Assembly: GCA_035559535.1 (NCBI GenBank)
Contig: DATMBG010000034.1
Location: 1-64,000 of the forward strand
Length of the DNA: 64,000 nucleotides
From: Candidatus Limnocylindrales bacterium
GTDB lineage: Bacteria > Moduliflexota > Moduliflexia > Moduliflexales > JAUQPW01
Direction of reading: 5' to 3'
Numbering within the stretch: position 1 is the stretch's first letter; every line of letters starts with the position of its first letter. The notes under the pieces are model-generated. The model saw nothing but the letters and a program-made list of their open reading frames with translations, was not told the origin of the DNA and did not search any database. This document shows positions 1 through 33,894 of this stretch, in pieces. Made by a program: the position numbers and the translations under genes.

Positions 1-151
1 CTATCCGGACAAGATTCCCAACTTTGTGGCCAGTCAGACTGGGGCCAAGGTTTACATGCTTCCGGCCCATGTGGAGGGGGTACCTGAGGCTAAGGATTAT
101 TTTGCTTTGTTTGATTATTTGATCGCCAAGCTCAATGAAGCCATAAGATAA
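1..151 (+). CDS. C-terminal end of a probable metal ABC transporter substrate-binding protein (ZnuA/TroA-like), partial
   Basis: Frame 2 reads YPDKIPNFVASQTGAKVYMLPAHVEGVPEAKDYFALFDYLIAKLNEAIR*, resembling TroA-family C-termini; stop at 149-151. Confidence 0.55.
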   Translation, partial: YPDKIPNFVASQTGAKVYMLPAHVEGVPEAKDYFALFDYLIAKLNEAIR

Positions 152-203: not shown

Positions 204-1133
204 TTGGAAGAAATAGCCGAAGCCGCACAGATCGCCTGTTTGCTAGAGGTAAGTGCAACTAAACCGGGTAATGTAAATCGGTTTTATAATTTTAAAGATA
301 CCCGGTACGAGGATTTTCTTTTAAGTGCTGTTGCCCTAGGTGGAGCGTTTCGAGAGATTGATAAAGCCACTGTAGGAGAAACGATTTTAAAGGCTGTCCG
401 CTCAACCCGTAAATACGTAAAGACCAATACCAATCTGGGAATGATTTTGCTATTTGCCCCTATTGCTAAAGCCTATGCTCTGGGAAGAACAGGAGAATGG
501 AAAACTGGAGGAATGGAGGAACGGGAGAGCGGGTACCTGGTAACGCCCTCCCCGCCCTCTTACTCTGCCCGGGAACTACGTACTGACCTTGCAAAGGTCT
601 TAAATTCTCTGACGGTGGAGGATGCGAGAAATGCATACGAAGCGATTCGATTGGCCAATCCGGGAGGGATGGGAAAGGTAACAGACCACGATATCCGTGA
701 AGAAGTTCAGGTGTCCCTGTTGGAAGCTATGGCGGCAGCAGCTCATCGAGACTCCATCGCGAGGGAATATACAAGCCGGTTTGAAATTACCTTTCATCTG
801 GGATATCCTACCCTGCAACGCTATTTTACAGAAACCCGGGATCTTGAAAAGTCTATCGTCCAAACTTATCTGACTCTTCTTTCTGAAATTCCCGATACTC
901 TGATCACCAGAAAACAGGGGCTGGATGTGTCGCAGAATGTTATGACGAGAGCCAGAGAAGTTTTACAGGCCGGAGGAATCTTCTCGGAAGTTGGAAGGCA
1001 GAAATTGCAAGAACTGGACAAATTCCTCCGAAGTCGAGATAATCAACTCAATCCCGGCACTACCGCCGATTTGACAGCAGCCGCCCTGTTTGTTATTTTT
1101 TTATTAAATGGAAAGATACTACAAATGCTCTAA
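204..1133 (+). CDS. Triphosphoribosyl-dephospho-CoA synthase (CitG) family protein, archaeal/methanopterin-cluster type
   Basis: LLEVSATKPGNV, NTNLG, PDTLITRK and NPGTTADL motifs. Confidence 0.85.
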   Translation: MEEIAEAAQIACLLEVSATKPGNVNRFYNFKDTRYEDFLLSAVALGGAFREIDKATVGETILKAVRSTRKYVKTNTNLGMILLFAPIAKAYALGRTGEWKTGGMEERESGYLVTPSPPSYSARELRTDLAKVLNSLTVEDARNAYEAIRLANPGGMGKVTDHDIREEVQVSLLEAMAAAAHRDSIAREYTSRFEITFHLGYPTLQRYFTETRDLEKSIVQTYLTLLSEIPDTLITRKQGLDVSQNVMTRAREVLQAGGIFSEVGRQKLQELDKFLRSRDNQLNPGTTADLTAAALFVIFLLNGKILQML

Positions 1134-1632
1134 ATGCTGGAACGAGTTTGATTATACAGAAGTACCTGAAAAGAAAAATCCAGTGGAAGAACTTCAACTG
1201 GAAGCCTGTCCCTATTGTGGAGCGAAGGAAAGCCTTCAGGAGCTACTCACAGGTAGAACGCCCATTCTCCAAACCATAACCCATTTTTTCAAAACGCCCT
1301 CGACTTTCATAGAGGGAGAGAACATCCACTACGTTGAGAAGGTTTTTTCGGAACAGAATCGACTCATCCTTAAGCTCTTCACACCCCTGGGTCCTGAGAG
1401 TGAAGAAGTTCAACTCGATGAGCTGATCCTGCAGAGAAAGGATCCGGACGGATATAAATCCATGGGTCGTCTGGCCAAAGTAGGAAAAATTCTCTATGTA
1501 GATCCTATCCAGGATCCGGTTACCCAGGCCTCTTATTTGGCTCTTAAAATCGAAAAGCAGAGTTGGGAAACGGTGATGATCCTCCGGCTGGAACTTTATC
1601 CAGATGGGAGTTTTTTTGTACACTTTGAATAA
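1108..1632 (+). CDS. Hypothetical protein with N-terminal zinc ribbon
   Basis: CSKC...CPYC motif; overlaps the 3' end of the citG-like gene. Confidence 0.6.
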   Translation: MERYYKCSKCWNEFDYTEVPEKKNPVEELQLEACPYCGAKESLQELLTGRTPILQTITHFFKTPSTFIEGENIHYVEKVFSEQNRLILKLFTPLGPESEEVQLDELILQRKDPDGYKSMGRLAKVGKILYVDPIQDPVTQASYLALKIEKQSWETVMILRLELYPDGSFFVHFE

Positions 1633-1697
1633 AAACTGTCTGTTGTCCGAGGTTTGTTGTCGGTACTTCGGGTTATGACTCCAATTGTTTTAAACGA

Positions 1698-2588
1698 TTG
1701 ATTAAAATCGTTACGGCGAAGCGACAAGGGACCCTGGACCATAGACGATGGATTACATTGTTGTCGGAACTTAAATGCCGAGAATATACGATTCCCCTAA
1801 ATCGTCCTAAGATTATGGGTATTCTCAACGTAACCCCGGATTCTTTTTCCGACGCCGGACAATTTCTCGATCTTGGGAGGGCCCTGGAACACGCCCATCG
1901 AATGGCCGAAGAAGGAGCCGATATTCTGGATATTGGAGGGGCTTCAACCCGGCCTGGAGCCGAGCCGGTTTCTATAGAGGTAGAGCTTCAACGAGTTTTG
2001 CCGGTGATCCAACGACTTATCCATACGATTAAAATTCCTATTTCTATCGACACCTACCAACCGGAAGTGGCCAAAATCTGTTTACAAGAAGGGGTCCATA
2101 TGGTTAATGATGTAACGGGATTGAGAAATCCGGCCATGCGGGAGGTGGTTGCCGAATTTCAGGTCCCTGCAGTTATCATGCACATGTTGGGAGAGCCCAA
2201 GACCATGCAAAAAAACCCCTACTATGAGAATGTTATCGAGGATATTAAGAAGTTTCTAGGGGAGCAGGTTCGACAGGCGAAATCAGAAGGTATTGAACAG
2301 GTCATTGTAGATCCGGGAATTGGATTTGGGAAAACCCTGCATCATAATCTCGAAATTATTCGAAATTTAAAAGCTTTTAAGTCCCTGGATTGTCCCCTTC
2401 TGCTGGGTACTTCTCGGAAAACCTTTATTGGAAAGATTACCGGTGTAGAGAATCCCCAGGACCGATTGGAAGGAACAATTGTGACCAATATTATCGGGAT
2501 TATGAATGGGGCCGATATAATTCGGGTCCACGATGTAAAGGCTTGTAAGCGGGCCATCCAGGTTTATGAAGCCATATTTTTCCCCTGA
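1698..2588 (+). CDS. folP: Dihydropteroate synthase (true start probably ~60 nt downstream)
   Basis: MGILNVTPDSFSD, DIGGASTRPG, DPGIGFGK, SRK and IIRVHDV motifs. Confidence 0.95.
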   Translation: MIKIVTAKRQGTLDHRRWITLLSELKCREYTIPLNRPKIMGILNVTPDSFSDAGQFLDLGRALEHAHRMAEEGADILDIGGASTRPGAEPVSIEVELQRVLPVIQRLIHTIKIPISIDTYQPEVAKICLQEGVHMVNDVTGLRNPAMREVVAEFQVPAVIMHMLGEPKTMQKNPYYENVIEDIKKFLGEQVRQAKSEGIEQVIVDPGIGFGKTLHHNLEIIRNLKAFKSLDCPLLLGTSRKTFIGKITGVENPQDRLEGTIVTNIIGIMNGADIIRVHDVKACKRAIQVYEAIFFP

Positions 2589-3070
2589 TAAGGCTTCACC
2601 TCATGAAAATCCTTTAATTCTTGCCTCAACTCTAACACTGTCTTTTTGAAGATGGGATGTATCCAGGTTGGATTCAGTTCAGCCAGGGGAATCAGTACAA
2701 ACCCACGCTCATGGAGTCTGGGATGAGGAATTTCCAGATCAGCTTCCCTGAGAATCAAGTCGTTGTAGAAAAGGAGATCCAGATCGATAACCCGGGGCCC
2801 CCATTTGATGAGGTAGGTACGGCCCATCCCCCTTTCTATTTCTTTACATCTAAGGAAAACCTCTCGGGGAGGTAAGGAGGTTTTAATTTCTACAACACAA
2901 TTTATAAACCAGTCTTGATGCGCATACCCTACCGGTTCGGTATAATATAGGGAAGAAATCTTGCTAACTTCGATCCCCGGTGTAGCCTGGAGTTGATGGA
3001 TTGCTTCCTGGCAGTTTCTGACTTTGTCCCCTACATTGGAACCGATTCCGACATAAGCTGTTGTCTCCAT
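2564..3070 (-). CDS. folK: 2-amino-4-hydroxy-6-hydroxymethyldihydropteridine diphosphokinase
   Basis: GIGSNVG, WFINCV, WGPRVIDLDLL and PHPRLHERGFVLIPL motifs. Confidence 0.95.
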   Translation of the reverse strand: METTAYVGIGSNVGDKVRNCQEAIHQLQATPGIEVSKISSLYYTEPVGYAHQDWFINCVVEIKTSLPPREVFLRCKEIERGMGRTYLIKWGPRVIDLDLLFYNDLILREADLEIPHPRLHERGFVLIPLAELNPTWIHPIFKKTVLELRQELKDFHEVKPYQGKNMAS

Positions 3071-3110
3071 TGAGATATGAAAACCCGGGAGAGATCCGGA
3101 GGTTGGGTTA

Positions 3111-4085
3111 CTACTCCCGACCCTCTATGATCTCCACCCCGGTATTCTGCCCATGGACGGGGAAGAGAGTCGCTCTAACTTTCCCATGGAGAAATTCCTC
3201 GACCTTAGAGGCCAGTTCCTGTGCCTGCTCGTTTCCTTTTACCAGGCCGTAAACGGTCGGACCCCAGGAGCTTTGCCCGGCTCCGGCGGCTCCGCAAGCC
3301 AGCATATATTCAATCAGTTGCTCACAGATCTTATCTGCAAATAATCCCCCCTGGACGGTCTCGAAATAACTTCCTACGAGTTTCTGGATCTGGGTTAAAG
3401 CTTCACCGAAAACTTTTAAATTTTCTTCGATCAAAGCCGGTAGCATTTGCATGACCAGAATTCTACAGACTTCCCCAACCCGGTAAGGAGAGACAGGAAG
3501 AAGCTGTTCAAAGGCCCGTTGTTCTTTTTCCCCACTTAAACCTTTCTGGATTTCAGGAATAACAACTAAAAACATCCAGTTTTCGGGGAAAGGATATCGG
3601 AAAAGGATCGGAGGAGGGGAAATGTCTCTTTGATGGGGGGGAGGAGTCCGGGGATGTCCTCCATCGACTAAAAACCCGCCCTGGGTAAAGGCTCCAATCC
3701 CGATTCCCGAGCGACAACCCCGTACCATGACTCTGGCCAGTTCCGGGATAGGGATGTCCTTTTGAAAGAATTTAGCCAAACCGAAAGCCACCGCCAGGGA
3801 TAACTGAGTCCCAGACCCCAATCCCACATGCTCAGGAATTCTCTCCTTAAGATGAACCTTCACCGGCTCTTTAATATTATAATGATGGAGAAATCGCCTG
3901 ACCAGAACTTCCACTTTACCGGTGGTATCTCCCTGGATCATCAACTCCCCGGCTTCGGATATTTCTAAAACTATTCCCGGCTTGTGAATAGTTACACCAA
4001 TACTACCGAAGATCCGATTTAAAGAACCGTTTAAGTCCAGTAATCCCAGATGAAGCCGGGAAGGTGTTTTAAGAGTTAAAGTCAT
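3111..4085 (-). CDS. mptG: Beta-ribofuranosylaminobenzene 5'-phosphate (RFAP) synthase, GHMP family
   Basis: TPSRLHLG, HVGLGSGTQL, SGIGIGAF..GGFLVDGG and GQSSWGPT motifs; ATG at 4085 preferred over the upstream GTG. Confidence 0.9.
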   Translation of the reverse strand: MTLTLKTPSRLHLGLLDLNGSLNRIFGSIGVTIHKPGIVLEISEAGELMIQGDTTGKVEVLVRRFLHHYNIKEPVKVHLKERIPEHVGLGSGTQLSLAVAFGLAKFFQKDIPIPELARVMVRGCRSGIGIGAFTQGGFLVDGGHPRTPPPHQRDISPPPILFRYPFPENWMFLVVIPEIQKGLSGEKEQRAFEQLLPVSPYRVGEVCRILVMQMLPALIEENLKVFGEALTQIQKLVGSYFETVQGGLFADKICEQLIEYMLACGAAGAGQSSWGPTVYGLVKGNEQAQELASKVEEFLHGKVRATLFPVHGQNTGVEIIEGRE

Positions 4086-4190
4086 TTTGAAATCTGGCTT
4101 ATCCTTTCCTATCGGAGAGTATAGGGGTATCACCTCTATACTCCCACGACCCTTCTAAGCCCCCCTGGAAGGGTCTTCAAGGCCATCTTT

Positions 4191-4760
4191 CTAAGTCACT
4201 ACGGCTTCCGTATTTGCAGCCTGCCGGACGTAGTTCATAAGATACTCCATGGCCTGTTCCTCCTGAAGCCCACCGGTCTTTTTAACAATGACGGCAAACT
4301 CTTCAAATTTCTCTAAAATCTTTTCTACTCCAATAAACCTGATCCGCGTGGCTAAAATAGCTGCCTCGATAATAGCATTCTTGGCCCGATTAAACCCGAT
4401 AAAATCCCGGATCCGACCTCTTTTAACAATCCGGGTTGTAAACCTTGCACGTTCACTGCTACAATCCACTTCCGATACCACAAACTCATAATAGTAGCAC
4501 GTATCCTTCAGCACGAAACCCTGAATACATTCTGCCGGAAAACTCTCGAACTGTGGGGATGATACCGCACTTTCGGCAAAAATTAATACATTATCTGTAA
4601 TATGAACAACCCCCTGGCGCGTAGCCAGGAGATTTCGATAGGTAGTTCCTTCCTTATAAGGTCGGATGATAATCCTATCCTCTTCTAGCACAACCCCCAT
4701 GGGGGCAAAATTGACCTGACCTTGCTCGTTGATGGTTGAAACAATAGTTTCAGTAATCAC
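4191..4760 (-). CDS. DUF447 family protein (split-barrel, methanopterin-cluster associated)
   Basis: ETIVST...NFAPMGV, TYRNL and FNRAKNAIIEAAILATR motifs. Confidence 0.85.
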   Translation of the reverse strand: MITETIVSTINEQGQVNFAPMGVVLEEDRIIIRPYKEGTTYRNLLATRQGVVHITDNVLIFAESAVSSPQFESFPAECIQGFVLKDTCYYYEFVVSEVDCSSERARFTTRIVKRGRIRDFIGFNRAKNAIIEAAILATRIRFIGVEKILEKFEEFAVIVKKTGGLQEEQAMEYLMNYVRQAANTEAVVT

Positions 4761-5871
4761 AAATCTTCAAAAAATCTGACCGGTTATTTCCTACTACCAG
4801 GCGAAAGTAAGAATCTCCCCGTATATCCTCGACCCATTCCAGGGTCCCCTGGGCCTGAATGACCTCTCCCTTACGAGCTCCACAGAACCGACCCCGGTAA
4901 GAAATCAGTTCTTGAAGAGAATCCAGACCCTTTTGAAAGCTAAAAAAGGAAGGGGAAAAGGTATCAGAAAATGGAAGCGGTTTCCTTTCTATCCACCGAA
5001 CACGACGAACGACGAGGGGATAGCGACAGGGTGTAAACAGCGCTTCCTCATCATTCTGAACTATGCCTTCAACCCAGGCCGTTCCCATAGGGGTATACAC
5101 GCAGTCTTCATATCTTTCCGTGATCTCATCCCTATCCTTTAACAATCGAATATAGAAATCAAGAGTTTGTTGGGCCGAAGGAATACCTTTACATACTTTT
5201 CCTACTTCAAACTTACCTTGAAGCCGCTTCCGCCGTTCAAACTTTACGAATTCTTCAAAGGAAAGAGCCGTATCTTGGGATCGAAATTCCCACAATTTCC
5301 TCAATTCCTCCGGTCGATAGGGACGTATGGGACTATCCGGATTTTGAAAAAGCTTCGCCATGCCTTCGTAGACCTTAAGACCCTGTTGAGAGCCATAAAC
5401 AATCCAATCAAGGTCCGACCGGGGTGTGGCCAGTCCCACAAGAAATGAACCTGAGATACCCAGGGCCGTAAGAGGGATTTGGGATGCCTCCTGGAGGATC
5501 CTGACGAAACTCCTTAGAATTTCTCCATGGGGTTGAGAAATTGCAGATTCTTCGTTCATAACCTCCCACAGATATTCTTGAGGTCGATATATTTTCCCTA
5601 TACGCTCGTGAGGAACAGCTTGAAGAATGGTATCCTGGATCCGTTGATCCTGATAAAGATAATGGGGAAATTTCTCCTTTAATATCTGATAGCGATCGTT
5701 CAATGCATAGACCTTTTTATAACGAACTCCGTTTCGAAGGCGAGTCCCGTCTGGATCAGGGAAGTAGCGGAGAAAGGCGATCACATGGGTTTTGGGATGG
5801 ACGAACCCCTTGACATCAAAAATAAGATGTTCCACGGTCTCTATAAAATCACCTTCCCGGGCCGATATCAT
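4750..5871 (-). CDS. Predicted archaeal-type nucleotidyltransferase (COG1665-like)
   Basis: GISGSFLVGL...SDLDWIVYG Pol-beta-type motif; N-terminal FDVKGFVHP...AFLRY; C-terminal SYRGRF..GE. Confidence 0.75.
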   Translation of the reverse strand: MISAREGDFIETVEHLIFDVKGFVHPKTHVIAFLRYFPDPDGTRLRNGVRYKKVYALNDRYQILKEKFPHYLYQDQRIQDTILQAVPHERIGKIYRPQEYLWEVMNEESAISQPHGEILRSFVRILQEASQIPLTALGISGSFLVGLATPRSDLDWIVYGSQQGLKVYEGMAKLFQNPDSPIRPYRPEELRKLWEFRSQDTALSFEEFVKFERRKRLQGKFEVGKVCKGIPSAQQTLDFYIRLLKDRDEITERYEDCVYTPMGTAWVEGIVQNDEEALFTPCRYPLVVRRVRWIERKPLPFSDTFSPSFFSFQKGLDSLQELISYRGRFCGARKGEVIQAQGTLEWVEDIRGDSYFRLVVGNNRSDFLKICDY

Positions 5872-5914
5872 AGAGGTATCCCTAAACCTTGAGCGAAATA
5901 ATTATTCCTCGATC

Positions 5915-5966
5915 ACGCTTAACAGTAAATCCAGTCCAGTACGCTTAACAGTAAATCCAGTCCAGT
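5915..5966. repeat. Perfect 26-bp tandem duplication covering the DUF1464 stop codon
   Basis: ACGCTTAACAGTAAATCCAGTCCAGT at 5915-5940 and 5941-5966. Confidence 0.95.
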
Positions 5967-6922
5967 ACATGTTCATGGGCTTCTTTGATACCCAGATGGG
6001 TCACAATATTTTCAAATATACCGCCTTCGATCCCATTGGCTATAATGGCGGCTCCTATGGCCGATTCGAAACCTTCTTTATCATTTTGTAATATCCGGGT
6101 AGGATAACGATGGCCTAATTTTTCCTGGACCCACCGTTTATTTCTTCCCGTTAAAAGAATAGAATCCATGTGATAGAAATGCATAAAGGCCAGGAGTTCC
6201 TTTTCCAGGCTTTCCCAGAATGCTTTCTCTCCATACCCGGGGAATTTCTCTTCGAGATCCAGGAATCCTCCCCTGTAAATTTGGGCTTTGGTATTAAAAT
6301 TATAAAGATATGCCAGCTCCCCATCAATACTTCCACGACTTTTGGGTCCCATACAACCCGCCGTACCACCCAAGGCATCGATAATCTGACCGTCCTTTAC
6401 CACAAGTAAACAGGTAAAAGCATATCCTACTTCCAGCATCAGAAAATTCATGCCCTGAAAGCCTCTGCTATAGGAAGAATCCTCGAGGGAAGCATCTTCC
6501 AGCAGTATTTTCTCAACAAACGCAATGGAGCAGAGTTTATCTGAAGTTCCCAGGTCAATTTTATTGATTTTACGATATACGGGAATGGAAGGAAGAAGTT
6601 TAACAGCAGGGATACAATAAGCCTGGATATTTCTCGGTTTGAGGATTTCTAAAAATCTACCCAATCCCAATTCCCGAGGCTCTCCTTTTTTGAGGGTCAT
6701 CTCAAAAATATCCTGCTCCTGAATCTCCTGAACTTTCTTAAGGGGAATACCGAATCCCGAAGGAAGAACTATGGGAAGCGACGGATATCTGGCGACTATC
6801 TCATCCAGATAGGATAAAACCTGTAGGCTATCCTCAAATTCCCGAAGGTCTTTAACTTTTCTCCCTTCAAGGAGAGCTACTTTCCAGGATTTCGTGCCGT
6901 AATCAATACCCAAAGAGTACAA
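5945..6922 (-). CDS. DUF1464 family protein (ASKHA/butyrate-kinase-like, mainly archaeal)
   Basis: GIDYGTKS, PSGFGIPL, RKINKIDLGTSDK, GQIIDALGGT and DGELAY motifs. Confidence 0.85.
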   Translation of the reverse strand: MYSLGIDYGTKSWKVALLEGRKVKDLREFEDSLQVLSYLDEIVARYPSLPIVLPSGFGIPLKKVQEIQEQDIFEMTLKKGEPRELGLGRFLEILKPRNIQAYCIPAVKLLPSIPVYRKINKIDLGTSDKLCSIAFVEKILLEDASLEDSSYSRGFQGMNFLMLEVGYAFTCLLVVKDGQIIDALGGTAGCMGPKSRGSIDGELAYLYNFNTKAQIYRGGFLDLEEKFPGYGEKAFWESLEKELLAFMHFYHMDSILLTGRNKRWVQEKLGHRYPTRILQNDKEGFESAIGAAIIANGIEGGIFENIVTHLGIKEAHEHVLDWIYC

Positions 6923-6996
6923 AACTGCAGGAGGTGGGGAGTGGGCAAGGGTCCACTTTGGATCTTACTGCACCCCGCTCAGGTCCCACCTGTTTA

Positions 6997-7350
6997 TTAC
7001 GAAGAAGTTCGGACAATCTCCACCCCTACATAGTTTGCATTTTTAAGTACAAACTTCTTAACCCGAATTAAGACTTTTTTCGTTGGATACTTGCTTAAAA
7101 TAAAATGGGCTATTTCTTCTGCAACGGTTTCAATAAGGTGAAACTCTCTATTTTCTAGAAATGCCATGACACTTCGATAAACCTCAGAATAGCTGATAGT
7201 TTTCTTGACATCGTCTTCGCGAGCCGCCGCACTGAAATCTCCATAGATTTCCAGATCAATCAGCAACTTTTGCTTTCGGGATCTTTCAGAATCCGAGACT
7301 CCTACCCGGCCTTTGTAGAGTAATTCTTTAATGATAATTTTATCTTCCAT
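6997..7350 (-). CDS. folB: Dihydroneopterin aldolase
   Basis: GV...ER...Q, DD..KTISY, F.LIETVAEEIA and VGVEI motifs. Confidence 0.9.
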   Translation of the reverse strand: MEDKIIIKELLYKGRVGVSDSERSRKQKLLIDLEIYGDFSAAAREDDVKKTISYSEVYRSVMAFLENREFHLIETVAEEIAHFILSKYPTKKVLIRVKKFVLKNANYVGVEIVRTSS

Positions 7351-7358
7351 AAAAACCA

Positions 7359-8687
7359 CTAAACCTCATCTTCATTTAAATATCCCCATCGTAGTTCTTC
7401 CTCTTGAATAAATTTCTTGCGCAACTTCAAAGCAATCTTGGCCTTCATAAGTTCCTGACCCAGATAAAAAGCATGGGAAGGATCTCCCCGGATGTCCAGT
7501 TGGGAGAAGATTCTCTGAATATCGGTATCTTTGATAAAGGTTGTGGCATTAAAGACATAGATATATTGCCCATCAATAAAAATCCTGAAATTTCGATCCT
7601 TGATAAGACTTTGCATTTCCAGCATTTCTGCTTCTGAAAGATAATCCGTTTTTCGATCCTTAATGGTCAAAAGGCTATCATCGAGGTCTTTGGGGAGCCT
7701 GTTATTCTTATAGGTATAGTACATGAGCCTTCGGGCTTTATCTATCTCCCGAACAGAACCCCGGGCCCAGTTGGCTACTTCGGTTGTCAGGACATAGTTG
7801 ATATTCAACTCGGTCATAAATCCCACACAAAGTGCATTAATTCCGGTACTATCGGCGTCGGTCAACTCGGTAATATTGCCTAAACCCATGAGCATTTCGG
7901 CGGAAGGATATTTCTGACGAACCACATAGTAGCGATAAAAAGACTCTGCCAGGCCAAAATTGATGGGATTCAAGATGGGATCGATGATATAGTTTTTAAC
8001 CCCTTTTTTTTCTAGCTGTTCAATATTAAGATCTAGGGATTCAAGACCTGCCCCAAAATCGGGTATAACCACCGGAATACAGTTTAACTCTGAGGCTATG
8101 TCCATATTTTGGGAATTAACACTCAGCAGGTAATCCACACCGGCTTTATTAGCGGCCAAGATCTCTTTTTTATTGAAGGTATCAACACTCACCGTGAAAC
8201 CTTCTTGTTTTAGAAGGGTAATCACCTCTCCGATACCGGGGAATTCTACATCGGGTGTACATCCTACGTCAATAATATCTGCACCACTTTTTTTATAGTA
8301 ATGGGCCAGGGCTAAAATCTGTTCGGTACTCAGCAAAGGAGCATCGTTGATCTCGGCCAGGATCTTCAGTTTATATTCCCCATAGCCTATTTTCTTCTTT
8401 TTAAAACCAAAAAAATCCGGAATGTCCTTTAAATCTTTGGGGCCCTTCTCGACTTTGACTCCCAGGGCTTCTTCAATGGCCTTTATATCTACCACACACA
8501 TTCCTGAAAGGAGGATTTGATCACACTGAACCCCTTTCAAGTTCCGGATAATAAAGGGCGTCGTCATCAAAGCGGCTACACTGATTTTTAACACGGCCAC
8601 TTCATATTCAAAGTCCGGCTTCATCTCCGCTAAGGTCTCCCTCAGAGCCTTCTCGGCCAGTTTACCTGTGACGAATAAAATTTTCAT
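7359..8687 (-). CDS. DUF6513/dihydropteroate-synthase-like protein (methanopterin-type)
   Basis: LFVTGKLAE, VAALMT, GPKDLKDIP, GADIIDVG, GNITELTDADSTG and HAFYLGQEL.KA motifs. Confidence 0.85.
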   Translation of the reverse strand: MKILFVTGKLAEKALRETLAEMKPDFEYEVAVLKISVAALMTTPFIIRNLKGVQCDQILLSGMCVVDIKAIEEALGVKVEKGPKDLKDIPDFFGFKKKKIGYGEYKLKILAEINDAPLLSTEQILALAHYYKKSGADIIDVGCTPDVEFPGIGEVITLLKQEGFTVSVDTFNKKEILAANKAGVDYLLSVNSQNMDIASELNCIPVVIPDFGAGLESLDLNIEQLEKKGVKNYIIDPILNPINFGLAESFYRYYVVRQKYPSAEMLMGLGNITELTDADSTGINALCVGFMTELNINYVLTTEVANWARGSVREIDKARRLMYYTYKNNRLPKDLDDSLLTIKDRKTDYLSEAEMLEMQSLIKDRNFRIFIDGQYIYVFNATTFIKDTDIQRIFSQLDIRGDPSHAFYLGQELMKAKIALKLRKKFIQEEELRWGYLNEDEV

Positions 8688-8746
8688 TCCCTGATGGGGT
8701 CAGAAGTTCAGAAGTTAGGGTAAGGAGGCTTTTAACCTTCTAACCT

Positions 8747-9499
8747 CTAAACCCACATCCCTCCGTGTACATGAATGATTGCGCCGGTAATATATCGTGC
8801 CTTCTCTGAGATGAGAAAGCTAACCAGCTCGGCGATATCACCGGGTGCACCCAGGTATCCCAGTGGAACTAATTTTTTCCATTTCTCTTTATTTTCTTCT
8901 GAAAAGCGGGCGTATTCCTCGGTTTCGATAAAGCCGGGATTAATGGCATTCACCCGGATGTTAAATTTTCCTTCAGAACGGGCCAGATACTTTGTCATCA
9001 TCATCAGGCCGGTTTTAGCAATATAATAGGCAGGGGCCTCGAAGACGCCTATGGCCATGGGAACTTCGGCATTTAACGCTCCAATGTTGATAATGTGTCC
9101 ATTCCGACGGGCTCTCATACTTCGCAGGGCATGTTTCGTACAATAAAAGGCGCTACTTAGATTACCATCGATCATACGATACCATTCCTCATCGGTGGTA
9201 TCGAAAAGGGATCGAATTAAGTAAGGCCCTACATTGTTAACCAGAATATCCAGATGCCCAAACTGTCGGATCGTTTCCTCAACCAGATATCTTGCTTCGT
9301 CTGCCTTTGAAACATCTGCCTGGATTGCTATAGTCCCAGGAGATAAACGCTTTACTTCTTCCAGGGTACGTTCAGCCACCATTTTATTGGAACAGTAATT
9401 CAATATGGGAATGATACCGTCTCGTGCCAGTCTTAAAGCAATTTCTTTTCCAATCCCTCGGGTACTGCCGGTGATCAAAGCAATTTCTTTCTCAGACAT
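8747..9499 (-). CDS. Short-chain dehydrogenase/reductase
   Basis: TGSTRGIG, NNVG, YxxxK (YYIAK) and PGFIET motifs. Confidence 0.9.
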   Translation of the reverse strand: MSEKEIALITGSTRGIGKEIALRLARDGIIPILNYCSNKMVAERTLEEVKRLSPGTIAIQADVSKADEARYLVEETIRQFGHLDILVNNVGPYLIRSLFDTTDEEWYRMIDGNLSSAFYCTKHALRSMRARRNGHIINIGALNAEVPMAIGVFEAPAYYIAKTGLMMMTKYLARSEGKFNIRVNAINPGFIETEEYARFSEENKEKWKKLVPLGYLGAPGDIAELVSFLISEKARYITGAIIHVHGGMWV

Positions 9500-9696
9500 G
9501 AAAACGGGAGTCAGAATTCAGAATCTCTTTTGGAGGTACCGTCTACCTTCAAAAAAATCTACCCCTTAAAGAGAAAAAGTTGGAATCTCTTTGTTTCACC
9601 CTCTCCTTTTCTCTTTCAGGGGTCGTTTCTTCTAAACTAACCTCCCTTCCCGACGTGGGAAAGGAGAACCCGGGGATGGCCTGGGGCTTAACTCTT

Positions 9697-9739
9697 CCCT
9701 CACCCCTTCGTCCCCTCTCTCCCGAGTTGGGAGAAAGGG
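9697..9739. repeat. CCCTCACCCC...CCCTCTCCC...GGGAGAGGG-type palindromic repeat
   Basis: Same family recurs at 9855-9892 and, partially, at 42872-42894. Confidence 0.75.
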
Positions 9740-9816
9740 TTAGGGAAGGGGAACTGGAAGGGTCTGTAAAAATCCTACCCCAGAAGGCTCCCTCTTCTGA
9801 AGCCCCGAAAGAGGAA

Positions 9817-9944
9817 TACTTTGTTTACTTAGTTTTGCTTAACTTTATAAGCGGCCCTCACCCCCGGCCCCTCTCCCACAAGGGGAGAGGGGAGTTGGGA
9901 AGGAAAAGCAGCACTATAAGGTCAAAAACCAAGTAAACAAGGTA
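9817..9944. mobile_element. TA-flanked MITE-like element carrying a palindromic repeat
   Basis: Imperfect terminal IR TACTTTGTTTACTTAGTTTT / AAAACCAAGTAAACAAGGTA. Confidence 0.6.
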
Positions 9945-10279
9945 GGAGTCCGGGATAAAGACCTGAAGAGTTACTTTGTTTTTATTCTGACTTCTGACTC
10001 CTTAACTTTCTATTTGACAATTCCCTTATCTTTGTGCTTATAGTAGCTACAAGATATGCTTGCGTCAAGCTTTTACAGTAGTCCTGGAAAAAATCTCCTA
10101 TCTGAAGTAAAGTAGAAAGTTAAGAATGCCGTAGGATAGGCATATACAGGCTTTCAGGAGTAGTTTTTGAGCTTGAGCCGGATCTTGAGAAAAGTTCCTG
10201 AATTTTTTAATAAAGAAATCATTCCTCCAGTGCGGTAGAGATATTATCCAGATAACGTCCCTACCGTGTATTAACAAAG

Positions 10280-11023
10280 ATGCAACTTTTAGTCAGTGTG
10301 ACCGATGTCGAAGAAGCTGAAAACGCCATGGAAGGTGGCGCAGACATCATCGATATTAAGAATCCATCCGAAGGTTCTTTGGGTGCAAATTTTCCCCACG
10401 TGATCCGAGAAATTGTAAGCAAAATCCCTTCTTCTCTCGAATCCAGTGCGACCCTTGGAGACGTTCCCAATTTACCCGGCACAGTTTCTTTAGCCGGAGC
10501 AGGCGCAGCGTGGTGTGGGGTAAACTACGTAAAAGTGGGGCTTATGGGGGTTCGTACCCTGGAGGATGCCATTTTTCTCCTGAAACAGCTCCGCCATGCC
10601 GTCAAGATGATTAATCCCCATATTAAGGTTATAGCGGCCGGTTATGCCGATGCGGCTATGGTTAAAGCCTTAAATCCCCTCCTTCTTCCCCTGGTTTCCT
10701 CACAGGCAGGTATTGAGGGGTGTATGATCGATACGGCAATTAAAGACGGACATAATCTGTTTTACTATTTAAATCGAGATCAGCTTGAGAATTTTGTCAC
10801 GGAAGCCCAGGGATCTGGTTTAATCTGTGCCCTGGCAGGATCTTTACGTGAGGTGGACATACCCCTTATCCAGGAGCTGGGTGCAGATATTATAGGTCTT
10901 AGAACGGCCGTATGTGAAGGGGATCGTGTCCGTGGGCGAGTTAGCAAAAGTAAAGTTCAAAGGATCCGTTCGATTCTGGAAATGAAATCTTTAAATGGCC
11001 ATCTCCAAACGACATATCCATGA
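10280..11023 (+). CDS. mfnB: (5-formylfuran-3-yl)methyl phosphate synthase (DUF556)
   Basis: LLVS...EEA...GGADIIDIKNPSEGSLGANFP, SATLGD, YVKVGL, DTAIKDG and ALAGSL motifs. Confidence 0.92.
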   Translation: MQLLVSVTDVEEAENAMEGGADIIDIKNPSEGSLGANFPHVIREIVSKIPSSLESSATLGDVPNLPGTVSLAGAGAAWCGVNYVKVGLMGVRTLEDAIFLLKQLRHAVKMINPHIKVIAAGYADAAMVKALNPLLLPLVSSQAGIEGCMIDTAIKDGHNLFYYLNRDQLENFVTEAQGSGLICALAGSLREVDIPLIQELGADIIGLRTAVCEGDRVRGRVSKSKVQRIRSILEMKSLNGHLQTTYP

Positions 11024-11706
11024 AAAAGTTAATTCTTTGCCTGATTGGAATTCTGCTCTTACGGCCTGGGATAGCCGGAGCCCATAACAACAGCATTAGT
11101 TTCTCCGAAATTAAAATCTATCCCGATCACATCCAATACGATCTCAGAACTATTCTGAGCGAGTTTATAACCCATGCTGTTCTTGCAGACGATAACGGAG
11201 ATCAAAAACTCGATGAGGTAGAACTTCAGCATCACAGGCAGGAAATATACGAATATTTTAACAAGCGGATCAAAATCCAGGGAAGTTCTCCCTACACTTT
11301 GAAATTAGACTCTATAACCCTTTCAGAAAGTGGGATGCCTTCCATTACCTTCCACCTGATTTTTACGCCTAAAAATCGAAAGGTTGGAAGTTTTACCATC
11401 TCTTGCAAGATATTTGAAGATGTTCAGAACCATCGAAGCCTGGCCAAGATAACGTCCGGAGAAGAAACCCGGCAATTTGTCTTTACGTTGGATAACCAGT
11501 ATGAAAGGAAAGTGGCGGAAGAAGATCAAGACTTTTTCTCCTTAGAGGGAGCTTCAGGGGTTCGAAAGATCCTTATCGCCTTGCTGATACTGATGGGAAT
11601 TGTGGGTAGTTTGTGGTTTGTCCGACGAGCTTTCCGGACGCGCGCCCCTTTACAGAAGGATGGGTCGGATGTAGATATTATAACAGAAGTGGATAAAAAG
11701 AACTGA
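11020..11706 (+). CDS. Exported, C-terminally anchored protein resembling the N-terminal domain of HupE/UreJ-type proteins
   Basis: Signal peptide ending AGAH; similar to the N-half of 32761..33894 (SCKI.EDV...H..LAK.T..GETRQF.FT); one C-terminal TM. Confidence 0.65.
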   Translation: MKKLILCLIGILLLRPGIAGAHNNSISFSEIKIYPDHIQYDLRTILSEFITHAVLADDNGDQKLDEVELQHHRQEIYEYFNKRIKIQGSSPYTLKLDSITLSESGMPSITFHLIFTPKNRKVGSFTISCKIFEDVQNHRSLAKITSGEETRQFVFTLDNQYERKVAEEDQDFFSLEGASGVRKILIALLILMGIVGSLWFVRRAFRTRAPLQKDGSDVDIITEVDKKN

Positions 11707-32654: not shown

Positions 32655-32850
32655 GTGTGGGAGTATGGGAGTATGGGAGGGAGTATGGGAGTATGGGAGG
32701 GAGTATGGGGGTATGGGAGGGAGTATGGGGGTGTGGGAGTAAGTATGGGAGTATGGAAGTATGAATACTTTACTTTTCAAACCCCCACACCTCCACACTC
32801 CCACACCCCCATACTCCCACACCCCCACACCTCCACACCCTCACACTACC
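32655..32850. repeat. Octamer tandem repeat (GGGAGTAT-like) followed by its inverted counterpart
   Basis: About a dozen GGGAGTAT/GGGAG units at 32655-32760; CCCACAC/CCCCATAC units at 32782-32850. Confidence 0.9.
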
Positions 32851-33894
32851 CTCCCATTCTTTCTTTTTCTACTGCTCAGCCTTGCTCTTCCCGTAATCGC
32901 CCACACTTACAGTACCAGTTATTCCTATCTGACCATTGAACAGGATAAGGTGTTCTACCGATTAAAAGTCCCTGCAACGCAGTTTTTGACGGCAATTCAG
33001 GTGGAACCCGACAAACTTAATGAAAACCTGGATAAGGCCGCTGCCTACCTGAGAGAGAAGATTAAAATCCTGAATCGCAGATCGGCTTGTAATTTGACCC
33101 TTCAGCACCTCCATCCACTGGAAGAGGATCCTATTTTTATCCAGATCGATATGGTCTTTACCTGCAAAAAACCCATCGATAACTTCACCATGTCCTGTAA
33201 AATTCTGGAAGATGTCCCCGAACTCTATCATCAGAATCTGGCCAAAATGACTTTCAGGGGGGAGACCCGCCAATTCCTTTTTACACCGGACAAATATTAC
33301 AACTGGGAAGAAGGAGGGATGTTGGGGGAGATCCCTCAAGAAAATCGGTTTACTCGTATTAAAGAGAAGATCGGGTCAGGAATCCAAAGCATATTAACCG
33401 GAGGGAATATCCTTTTATTTCTTCTGATCTTGTTTCTGCCGGTTGGAGTCTTAAAAGAGGCTTTTAAAACCCTCCTCGCTTTTACCCTGTCCTACACGCT
33501 GGCCTTCTTTCTGGAAAATCTTCTGTTTTTACATCTAACTCCCAAATTTATAAACTCTCTCCTCTACTTCGGGGTGGCCTATATGGCCCTTGAAAATTTA
33601 TCTATAAAGCCTGCTCTCCATCGATGGATTCCGGCGGGGATCTTTGGTTCTGTATATGGATTTTATTCTGCCCAAGCTTTCGCAGCTTTGGATCGGTCTT
33701 CATCGGATCGGTTTGTTTCTTTGTTTGCTTTTTATATCGGAACCGAAACAGGACAGATTATCATTCTCCTCTTTTTAGTTCCTGCTGTTTCTTACTTGAA
33801 CCGGTGGAAGATGGGATATAAGACTATCCGGGTTCTTTCCATGGGAATTCTTGGAATCGCGTTACTTCAGTTTTTTAGAGGGATTTTGTTATAG
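32761..33894 (+). CDS. HupE/UreJ-type membrane protein with periplasmic N-terminal domain
   Basis: IL.G...LLFL, AFT.S, A.ENL, FG..YGF and GTETGQ framework; six C-terminal TMs. Confidence 0.75.
   Translation: MNTLLFKPPHLHTPTPPYSHTPTPPHPHTTLPFFLFLLLSLALPVIAHTYSTSYSYLTIEQDKVFYRLKVPATQFLTAIQVEPDKLNENLDKAAAYLREKIKILNRRSACNLTLQHLHPLEEDPIFIQIDMVFTCKKPIDNFTMSCKILEDVPELYHQNLAKMTFRGETRQFLFTPDKYYNWEEGGMLGEIPQENRFTRIKEKIGSGIQSILTGGNILLFLLILFLPVGVLKEAFKTLLAFTLSYTLAFFLENLLFLHLTPKFINSLLYFGVAYMALENLSIKPALHRWIPAGIFGSVYGFYSAQAFAALDRSSSDRFVSLFAFYIGTETGQIIILLFLVPAVSYLNRWKMGYKTIRVLSMGILGIALLQFFRGILL

Follow-up and report, generated by a model that had tools for sequence, protein, structure and literature searches.

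The DNA considered here, called the window throughout, is the first 64 kb (64,000 nucleotides) of contig C34 (DATMBG010000034.1; 85.2 kb) in the draft genome of an uncultured Candidatus Limnocylindrales bacterium (GCA_035559535.1; 5.6 Mb in 58 contigs, with estimated completeness and contamination of 95.8 and 4.1%, respectively). Positions 204-11706 hold a compact gene cluster that is very probably a biosynthesis island for a pterin cofactor of the tetrahydromethanopterin (H4MPT) type, with one methanofuran gene included, serving a complete formaldehyde-oxidation pathway encoded on other contigs. Genes were identified from the listing of open reading frames (ORFs) together with Pfam and NCBIfam scans, and all those named in a first-pass annotation of the window were recovered. 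Four ORFs had gone unmentioned in that annotation, namely the short-chain dehydrogenase/reductase, the zinc-ribbon ORF and the ORFs of 118 and 228 residues described below. Its description of the locus as a methanopterin-type cofactor cluster merged with genes of the pterin branch of folate synthesis is supported by the analysis below.

Three transcription units make up the island. The first, on the plus strand, starts with a CitG-like protein (204-1133; PF01874, 263 bits), the counterpart of methylotroph orf7, and continues with a 174-residue zinc-ribbon ORF (1108-1632; weak zinc-ribbon hints in Pfam), which overlaps the citG-like stop by 26 nt, and with the dihydropteroate synthase (DHPS) gene folP (1698-2588; TIGR01496, 349.6 bits, cut-off 162.6). 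The second comprises eight minus-strand genes that overlap or are separated by gaps of 0-75 nt. It opens with a FabG-like short-chain dehydrogenase/reductase (SDR; 8747-9499; PF13561, 188 bits), followed by a DUF6513/DHPS-like protein (7359-8687; PF20123, 84 bits; TIGR00284, 221 bits, cut-off 257) that corresponds to methylotroph orf20 and to the archaeal MJ0301 type, and whose stop codon is overlapped by the start codon of the dihydroneopterin aldolase gene folB (6997-7359; TIGR00525, 81 bits, cut-off 72). Next come a DUF1464 protein of predicted ASKHA fold (5945-6922; PF07318, 232 bits), a 373-residue Pol-beta-type nucleotidyltransferase (NTase)/OB-fold protein (4750-5871; weak NTP_transf_2 match) and a DUF447 protein (4191-4760; PF04289 and PF20766), the methylotroph orf19 counterpart, from a family of flavin-binding-like fold. 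The unit ends with mptG (3111-4133; TIGR00144, 221.5 bits, cut-off 113.5), encoding beta-ribofuranosylaminobenzene 5'-phosphate (RFAP) synthase, and folK (2564-3070; TIGR01498, 143 bits, cut-off 54), encoding 6-hydroxymethyl-dihydropterin pyrophosphokinase. The third unit, again on the plus strand, runs onward from an MfnB-like 4-(hydroxymethyl)-2-furancarboxaldehyde phosphate synthase (10280-11023; PF04476, 262 bits, cut-off 22), the counterpart of methylotroph orf21. MptG contains both the N- and C-terminal GHMP kinase domains (PF00288, PF08544) and scores 255.6 bits against the archaeal equivalog model NF040726, under the cut-off of 328, which makes it a family member rather than an equivalog-level match; the MfnB-like protein reaches 280 bits against equivalog NF002573 (cut-off 341). 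All the cluster genes, among them FolP, FolK, FolB and MptG, occur as single copies in the genome.

More than a chance grouping, the cluster is conserved in a sister species, where it lies with the same flanks on a 55.8-kb contig (locus L009) at 91-96% nucleotide identity, the synteny spanning the whole 14 kb compared. Ratios of non-synonymous to synonymous substitution (dN/dS) of 0.02-0.24 between the two species indicate purifying selection on the real cluster genes, and the GC content is even along the window. The zinc-ribbon ORF has one real relative among 1.84 billion representatives; despite this single related cluster, its dN/dS of 0.12 marks it as a real, genus-restricted gene.

The first-pass annotation had noted that the window lacks mch, mtd, fae and fhc, which proved correct, and had suggested that a modified methanopterin-like pterin might serve enzymes outside the classic formaldehyde-oxidation set in this host. 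When the whole genome was searched by family and the resulting loci were scanned with NCBIfam, no gene for one-carbon (C1) transfer turned up on contig C34, and these genes were placed on contigs C50 and C44 only. On C50 (2272-12199), a fwdD-like gene, fhcB, fhcA, fhcD, fhcC, mch, a histidine kinase gene and an mptN-type glutamate ligase gene follow one another in one direction. FhcB (TIGR03129) scores 552 bits, FhcA 801, FhcD 420, FhcC 275 and Mch (TIGR03120) 402, and the C1 genes of this contig exceed the NCBIfam cut-offs, save MptN and FwdD. Contig C44 encodes Fae (TIGR03126, 264 bits), an MptA-type GTP cyclohydrolase (296 bits, cut-off 220) and an MtdB/MtdA-like dehydrogenase with an Mpt_N domain (97-99 bits), whose best solved relative is MtdA of M. 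extorquens, as well as HisA/F-related, MfnD-like, MfnE-like and TIGR03123/MfnF-like proteins (the last at 349 bits, cut-off 244). At C44:185777-192430, 20 kb further along, a second Ftr/FhcD gene (339 bits) adjoins genes for a 5-formyl-tetrahydrofolate cyclo-ligase and a Rieske protein and stands beside two pyrroloquinoline quinone (PQQ) dehydrogenases of the methanol/ethanol family. The genome holds at least eight matches to this dehydrogenase family over the cut-off, and three more when split frames are summed; these enzymes are likely the sources of formaldehyde. Mer gave no match above its cut-off in the genome. Outside the window, then, the genome encodes Fae, Mch, an NAD(P) methylene-H4MPT dehydrogenase and the Fhc/Fwd complex, a full H4MPT/methanofuran route for the oxidation of formaldehyde to formate or CO2. 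Because the C1 enzymes lie on other contigs, the apparent lack of users of the cofactor is not real.

Among the nine genomes of the host phylum in the collection searched, Mch was found in two, both of this genus; in the sister species it is carried on a contig syntenic with that of the host. With an MptG query, the sister family (seven genomes) yielded weak GHMP matches only. The MptG of the window shares 34-37% identity with the 41 MptG genes carried by plasmids and chromids of proteobacteria and haloarchaea, and 45-51% with proteins whose names place them in Methylomirabilota, Anaerolineales/Chloroflexi, Bathyarchaeota and Nitrososphaeria. In a maximum-likelihood tree of 24 MptG rows, none of them planctomycete, the window protein groups with five relatives in a separate clade (100/100) and four proteobacterial rows are set apart by a long branch (0.93, 100/100); the tree did not resolve the relations of the other groups. 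FhcB points in the same direction, with 441 and 429 bits to the archaeal FmdB/FwdB chains 8rja_B and 5t5i_B versus 68 bits for the FhcB of M. extorquens (6s6y_B). The hydrolase-type Fhc of methylotrophs has a truncated FhcB without the pterin-metal site and no FwdD, a combination that the host does not show. Because its FhcB (C50:10498-12199, locus L006) is of the FwdB/FmdB type and keeps the aligned cysteine of the SVCH motif, and because a FwdD-like gene precedes fhcB, the host complex may be a redox-active formylmethanofuran dehydrogenase rather than the methylotroph hydrolase. According to Chistoserdova 2016 (PMC5020050), fwdD is retained in Archaea, Synergistetes, Firmicutes and NC10 but not in Proteobacteria/Planctomycetes, and the host pattern, with an archaeal-type FhcB and a FwdD-like gene, fits the retaining groups.

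Relative to the H4MPT island on a Phyllobacterium zundukense plasmid (NZ_CP104969.1) and to the metagenome loci described below, the host set is a mosaic. The DHPS-like protein, DUF447, Fae and FhcD resemble the Phyllobacterium island no less than the metagenome loci, and MptG, MptN, FhcA, FhcB and FhcC are nearer to the latter. Judged by its sequences and gene content, the H4MPT system is not of the proteobacterial methylotroph type. The complete pathway does lie elsewhere in the genome, on contigs C50 and C44, but MptG and FhcB do not group with ordinary methylotroph orthologues, the former being split off with full support and the latter being of the archaeal FwdB type.

Three proteins of the island belong to families for which we found no assignment to methanopterin synthesis in the searchable literature: the CitG-like protein, the NTase/OB protein and DUF1464. 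The last two had been flagged as archaeal-type unknowns, and their relatives bear this out. The NTase has 622 homologues; among the best 120, every one with a name is archaeal (Bathyarchaeota, Helarchaeota, Njordarchaeota, Thermoprotei and Methanomethylicia), at 38-44% identity. In an AlphaFold2 model (pLDDT 88.6), an unmatched N-terminal domain is followed by a Pol-beta-type palm (Z ~7), and the C-terminal part is an OB fold (Z 7-7.8). The segment 113-248 superposes on Pol beta, a terminal uridylyltransferase and Cid1 over 91-100 residues (Z 6.9-7.4, root-mean-square deviation 3.0-3.6), which, with Z below 8, amounts to moderate support. All 18 sequences compared share the motifs G141-S142 and D153-x-D155 without variation, in keeping with membership of the Pol-beta superfamily. 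A Foldseek search of the PDB with the model gave no match at E <= 0.001, and the domain-level matches came from a wider structure search. Placement in the CitX/MdcG family was considered and rejected: an 18-sequence profile aligned by hhalign to E. coli CitX gave 0.3% probability, and a Pfam scan at E values up to 5 returned NTP_transf_2 only, with no CitX or MdcG match.

DUF1464 is predicted to adopt an ASKHA carboxylate-kinase fold; its model (pLDDT 87) matches butyrate kinase 2 best in Foldseek (1saz; E 2.2e-12, TM 0.56), followed by acetate kinases (E ~1e-9 to 1e-8). Its nearest named relatives are proteins from Methylomirabilales metagenome-assembled genomes (MAGs; 52-58% identity) and then from several archaeal groups. 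The CitG-like protein falls well short of the equivalog models for MdcB (TIGR03132, 68 bits, cut-off 282) and CitG (TIGR03125, 50 bits, cut-off 272), and is 28% identical to E. coli CitG over just 67 residues. It is 36-40% identical to genes named 'orf7' in 37 proteobacterial replicons, which by organism belong to the same genera as those with MptG.

The gene neighbourhoods of NTase homologues link these families to methanopterin genes. Of 80 metagenome loci with an NTase homologue, the 41 of at least 9 kb were examined and 39 shorter ones left out. CitG-like genes co-occur in 26 of the 41, Mch in 12, FhcA, FhcB, FhcC and FwdD in 10 each, MptN in 6, DUF1464 in 5, and MptG, DUF447, the DHPS-like protein and MptA in 4 each. 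In 6 of the 41 the CitG-like gene immediately precedes that of the NTase in the same orientation. Gene sets like that of the island recur in loci L025, L051 and L053, the order in L025 being DHPS-like, MptG, MptA, DUF1464, DUF447, CitG-like, NTase. Most of the loci hold additional NTase paralogues, from one to three; in the mainly archaeal loci L022, L031-L033, L037, L040, L046, L048-L050 and others, the NTase is followed by one to three diverged copies (phmmer E 1e-10 to 1e-38), forming small arrays beside fwd/mch genes. Distant NTase/OB relatives, ~25% identical over 93-96% of the length, also occur on 22 Streptomyces plasmids beside genes of the aminoglycoside-phosphotransferase family.

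Methanopterin carries an alpha-linked ribose 5-phosphate on its ribitol, to which the archaeal form adds a phosphodiester to hydroxyglutarate. With ATP as donor, CitG forms a triphosphoribosyl adduct in alpha-glycosidic linkage, and CitX/MdcG, of the Pol-beta class, then form a phosphodiester with loss of pyrophosphate; in this way the CitG/MdcB and CitX/MdcG enzymes make and attach the 2'-(5''-phosphoribosyl)-3'-dephospho-CoA prosthetic group, which for CitG and CitX is that of citrate lyase. The chemistry of methanopterin, an alpha-ribosyl linkage and then a phosphodiester, matches that of the CitG/CitX pair, and the host resembles this system in pairing a CitG-family protein with an NTase of the Pol-beta superfamily. 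Compared with CitX, however, the host NTase is twice as long, carries an OB fold and has no detectable sequence similarity.

For a set of genes whose identities, order and copy numbers were observed directly, as was the presence of the C1 enzymes, we infer each of the following reactions. MptA, encoded on contig C44, would open GTP, and FolB and FolK would make 6-hydroxymethyl-dihydropterin pyrophosphate, which would be divided between FolP, for folate, and the DUF6513/DHPS-like enzyme. MptG would make RFAP from an aminobenzoate and phosphoribosyl pyrophosphate (PRPP), the DUF6513/DHPS-like enzyme would couple the pterin pyrophosphate with RFAP, and DUF447, perhaps with the SDR, would reduce intermediates. 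The alpha-ribosyl-5-phosphate side chain would be built by the CitG-like protein, the NTase/OB protein and DUF1464: by analogy with CitG, the first would transfer a triphosphoribosyl group from ATP; by analogy with CitX/MdcG, the second would link the alpha-phosphate to a hydroxy acid and release pyrophosphate; and DUF1464 would carry out a further ATP-dependent, possibly phosphotransfer, step. MptN, from contig C50, would add glutamate. The MfnB-like enzyme would make the furan moiety and, with the MfnD/E/F-like proteins of contig C44, lead to a methanofuran/methylofuran cofactor. The Methylorubrum cofactor lacks the phosphate and the hydroxyglutarate, which would account for the presence of a CitG-like gene, and the lack of an NTase, in proteobacterial islands.

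The island's folate genes fit into this scheme through a shared pterin supply. No FolE was found in either of the two genomes of the genus, and FolC, FolD and ThyX are present. The simplest reading is that one pterin line, made up of MptA, a postulated phosphodiesterase, FolB and FolK, feeds both FolP and the DHPS-like enzyme. On contig C44, between an ATP-grasp gene and fae (locus L007:10187-11251, minus strand), lies a metallo-beta-lactamase protein with weak matches to RNase Z and to cyclic-nucleotide phosphodiesterase; to see in it the phosphodiesterase for the cyclic-phosphate product of MptA would be pure speculation. In addition, two ThyX domains are fused in tandem in one 498-residue open frame at C58:159307-160686, in a genome in which no dihydrofolate reductase (DHFR) was found.

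That negative result concerns PF00186, which has no match in the genome. AfpA/DmrB (TIGR02699) reached 24 bits against a cut-off of 192 and DmrX (TIGR02700) 37 against 251, and none of the known dihydromethanopterin reductases (DmrA, DmrB/AfpA, DmrX) was found in this draft genome of 95.8% completeness. Since no known reductase was found, the SDR of the island is a candidate pterin reductase, acting on dihydromethanopterin and dihydrofolate, or alternatively a candidate ribose-to-ribitol reductase. It holds the classical TGxxxGxG (here TGSTRGIG) and YxxxK motifs; FolM has TGxxxRxG in place of the former. With 190 bits against TmpR (cut-off 325) and 151 against PRK09135 (cut-off 288), it falls outside the FolM/PTR1/TmpR group.

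Other correspondences were tried with the Phyllobacterium island. The window FolB does not match the aldolase annotated there. The orf21-type, MfnB-like protein of that plasmid (locus L113, 27162-28334) is 390 residues long, and its frame matches the window FolB at 28% identity over 113 residues; it may carry a FolB-like part, with the separately annotated aldolase adjoining it. The ORF of 228 residues that follows the MfnB-like gene in the window was rejected as a counterpart of the extra part of this protein (E 0.48).

Taken as a whole, the detailed scheme, in which the three orphan families are the missing side-chain enzymes of a full-length archaeal-type methanopterin, the MptA-FolB-FolK line supplies both folate and methanopterin, and the SDR replaces both reductases, is possible by analogy but rather doubtful. 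Several observations count against it and against the assignment of the island. MptG, the MfnB-like protein and the DHPS-like protein all score below the NCBIfam equivalog cut-offs. Since the NTase does not resemble CitX in sequence, the CitG/CitX analogy draws on fold class and gene neighbourhood only; OB folds are typical of nucleic-acid binders, and an RNA-directed role for the protein is conceivable. DUF1464 occurs in only 5 of the 41 NTase loci. Work with methanogen cell extracts reportedly named PRPP, and not ATP, as the ribosyl donor. The SDR is generically FabG-like and absent from all 41 related loci, and, since the genome is a draft, DHFR, FolE, AfpA and DmrX are to be read as not found rather than proven absent.

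With the C1 enzymes located, it has become very improbable that the pterin serves users outside the classic formaldehyde-oxidation set. The idea drew on the absence of mch, mtd, fae and fhc from contig C34 and on the archaeal type of two cluster genes. However, the same genome encodes Fae, the MtdB-like dehydrogenase, Mch, two Ftr/FhcD proteins, FhcA-C and the FwdD-like protein, the majority with scores far over the family cut-offs; the sister species also has Mch, on a syntenic contig; and the cluster sits at a contig end. The proposal of different users is largely refuted, and what survives of the proposed modified pterin is a side chain that may be unlike that of dephospho-H4MPT, because MptG forms a separate clade and FhcB is of archaeal type. 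Even less credible is a binning or assembly artefact by which the island would derive from a contaminating archaeon or another bacterium. The contamination estimate of 4.1% and the mainly archaeal relatives of several genes would allow it, but the same cluster and flanks recur on the sister-species contig, GC content is uniform over the window, and typical bacterial folP, folK, folB and mazG genes are interleaved in the same operons.

We also regard it as unlikely that folB, folK and folP are accidental neighbours that serve folate only, with the methanopterin pterin supplied by other, unrecognized enzymes. The 41 metagenome NTase loci contain no FolP, FolK or FolB, nor an SDR or MfnB, and the Phyllobacterium island uses a different aldolase-like gene; yet folB and folK lie inside the tightly packed eight-gene operon, with folB overlapping the end of the DHPS-like gene, and are the only copies in the genome. 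Much closer to the balance, with a chance somewhat short of even, is that the product is an archaeal-type methanopterin of full length, bearing a hydroxy acid in phosphodiester linkage or another side chain of the TACK/Asgard type, and not dephospho-H4MPT. The NTase is found in 0 of 41 plasmid or chromid records carrying MptG (its only plasmid matches being the 22 Streptomyces records at ~25% identity) and DUF1464 in 0 of 72,556 plasmid records, compared with 37 for the CitG-like protein. The Phyllobacterium island has neither NTase nor DUF1464, DUF1464 matches only Sulfolobus acidocaldarius among the control genomes, and the Atlas clusters of the NTase are 53-91% archaeal. On the other hand, absence from plasmid-borne islands is uninformative about chromosomes, and to our knowledge the structure of the methanopterin cofactor has been established for few organisms only. 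This alternative concerns the product alone and is compatible with the island being an H4MPT-type biosynthesis locus for the formaldehyde-oxidation pathway.

The biosynthesis island begins 204 nt from the assembly break at the start of contig C34. Positions 1-151 (plus strand) are the 3' end of a gene for a ZnuA/TroA-like substrate-binding protein of a metal ATP-binding cassette (ABC) transporter, identified by translation and cut by the contig start so that the last 50 residues are encoded; the sister-species contig reaches merely 199 nt beyond this point. Past mptN, the outward end of contig C50 holds an ABC ATPase, a permease and a porin-like ORF, and in the sister species the same contig end runs on into the first 44 residues of a ZnuA-like binding protein. 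This metal ABC transporter/porin/binding-protein region has a second, paralogous copy, ~90% identical and likewise at contig breaks: C50:1-41 pairs with C40:1-41 (41 nt shared) and C34:2-149 with C33:180230-180377, the end of contig C33 is another binding-protein 3' end, and sister-species contig C149 carries the paralogous porin and binding protein. Both genus assemblies break beside the cluster because the two transporter-region copies sit at the breaks. Adjacency of C50 and C34 was attempted from the contig ends. The join is plausible and is the one that would yield two complete transporters, but because of the second copy it is just one of two possible joins and is unproven; if real, it would put fhc-mch-mptN some 5-6 kb upstream of the citG-like gene. 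A scan for promoters and terminators was uninformative (27 promoter-like sites, compared with 18.9 +/- 4.7 in shuffled sequences).

Two further ORFs accompany the cluster. Between the minus-strand operon and the MfnB-like gene, a 118-residue ORF (9580-9936, plus strand) was judged not to be a gene since it is not conserved in the sister species (63 nt align; dN/dS 1.47). The 228-residue ORF (11020-11706, plus strand) is translationally coupled to the MfnB-like gene and has a dN/dS of 0.17; Pfam and NCBIfam scans gave no family match, and the Atlas gives bacterial hypothetical clusters only. A paralogue of 383 residues lies 21 kb downstream (32743-33891, plus strand; phmmer 2e-13), also without a Pfam or NCBIfam family. 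The 228-residue ORF is followed by mazG and then by a family III CoA-transferase gene.

Among known systems, one of the closest is that of the proteobacterial methylotroph H4MPT islands (orf4/mptG, orf5, orf7, orf9, orf17, orf19, orf20, orf21, orf22, afpA), as in Phyllobacterium zundukense and, according to PMC3615186, Methylosinus trichosporium OB3b. The host shares with them mptG, the CitG-like gene (orf7), DUF447 (orf19), DUF6513/DHPS-like (orf20) and MfnB-like (orf21), as well as a RimK-type ligase, a HisA/F-related protein, TIGR03123 (orf9), Fae, MtdB, Mch, FhcA, FhcC and FhcD. It also shares the scatter of these genes over several islands, which is usual: five islands are described in M. 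trichosporium OB3b, one of them being orf19-orf20-afpA-orf21-orf22 (PMC3615186). The biosynthesis genes are merely 31-40% identical, however, including 31% for DUF447, 35% for the MfnB-like protein and 37% over 436 residues for the DUF6513/DHPS-like protein in comparison with Phyllobacterium. MptG falls in a different clade, the host has no afpA match over the cut-off, its FhcB is of the FwdB type with a FwdD-like subunit, and its island adds the NTase, DUF1464, the SDR and canonical folB, folK and folP.

NC10/Methylomirabilales resemble the host in the retention of fwdD (PMC5020050), and their MAG proteins are the nearest named homologues of both MptG and DUF1464; the host is nevertheless of a different lineage. 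A third comparison is with archaeal methanopterin synthesis (MptA, MptG, the MJ0301-type DHPS-like enzyme and MptN) and the methanopterin-type clusters of TACK and Asgard archaea: in metagenome loci such as L025, L051 and L053, MptA, MptG, the DHPS-like protein, DUF447, the CitG-like protein, the NTase and DUF1464 co-occur, the same families as in the host. Unlike archaea, the host uses bacterial FolB and FolK instead of the archaeal-type aldolase and kinase, includes FolP, and pairs the cluster with a bacterial, NAD(P)-type MtdB-like dehydrogenase.

The function of the island is ordinary, and because the users of the cofactor were found in the same genome there is no pointer to new C1 biochemistry; the novelty lies in the variant and in its three orphan families. 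The results point to likely methylotrophy or alcohol oxidation in a small and isolated lineage of bacteria, this genus being the only one with the pathway among the nine genomes of the phylum. A pathway of archaeal/NC10 style, with FwdB/FwdD-type proteins, in this host adds to the debate on how these genes have spread. Synthesis of folate and of methanopterin appears to share one pterin gene set, and the SDR of the operon may prove to be a new pterin reductase. The occurrence of three uncharacterized families in one bacterial operon context with mptG makes them testable candidates for the side-chain steps of methanopterin synthesis.

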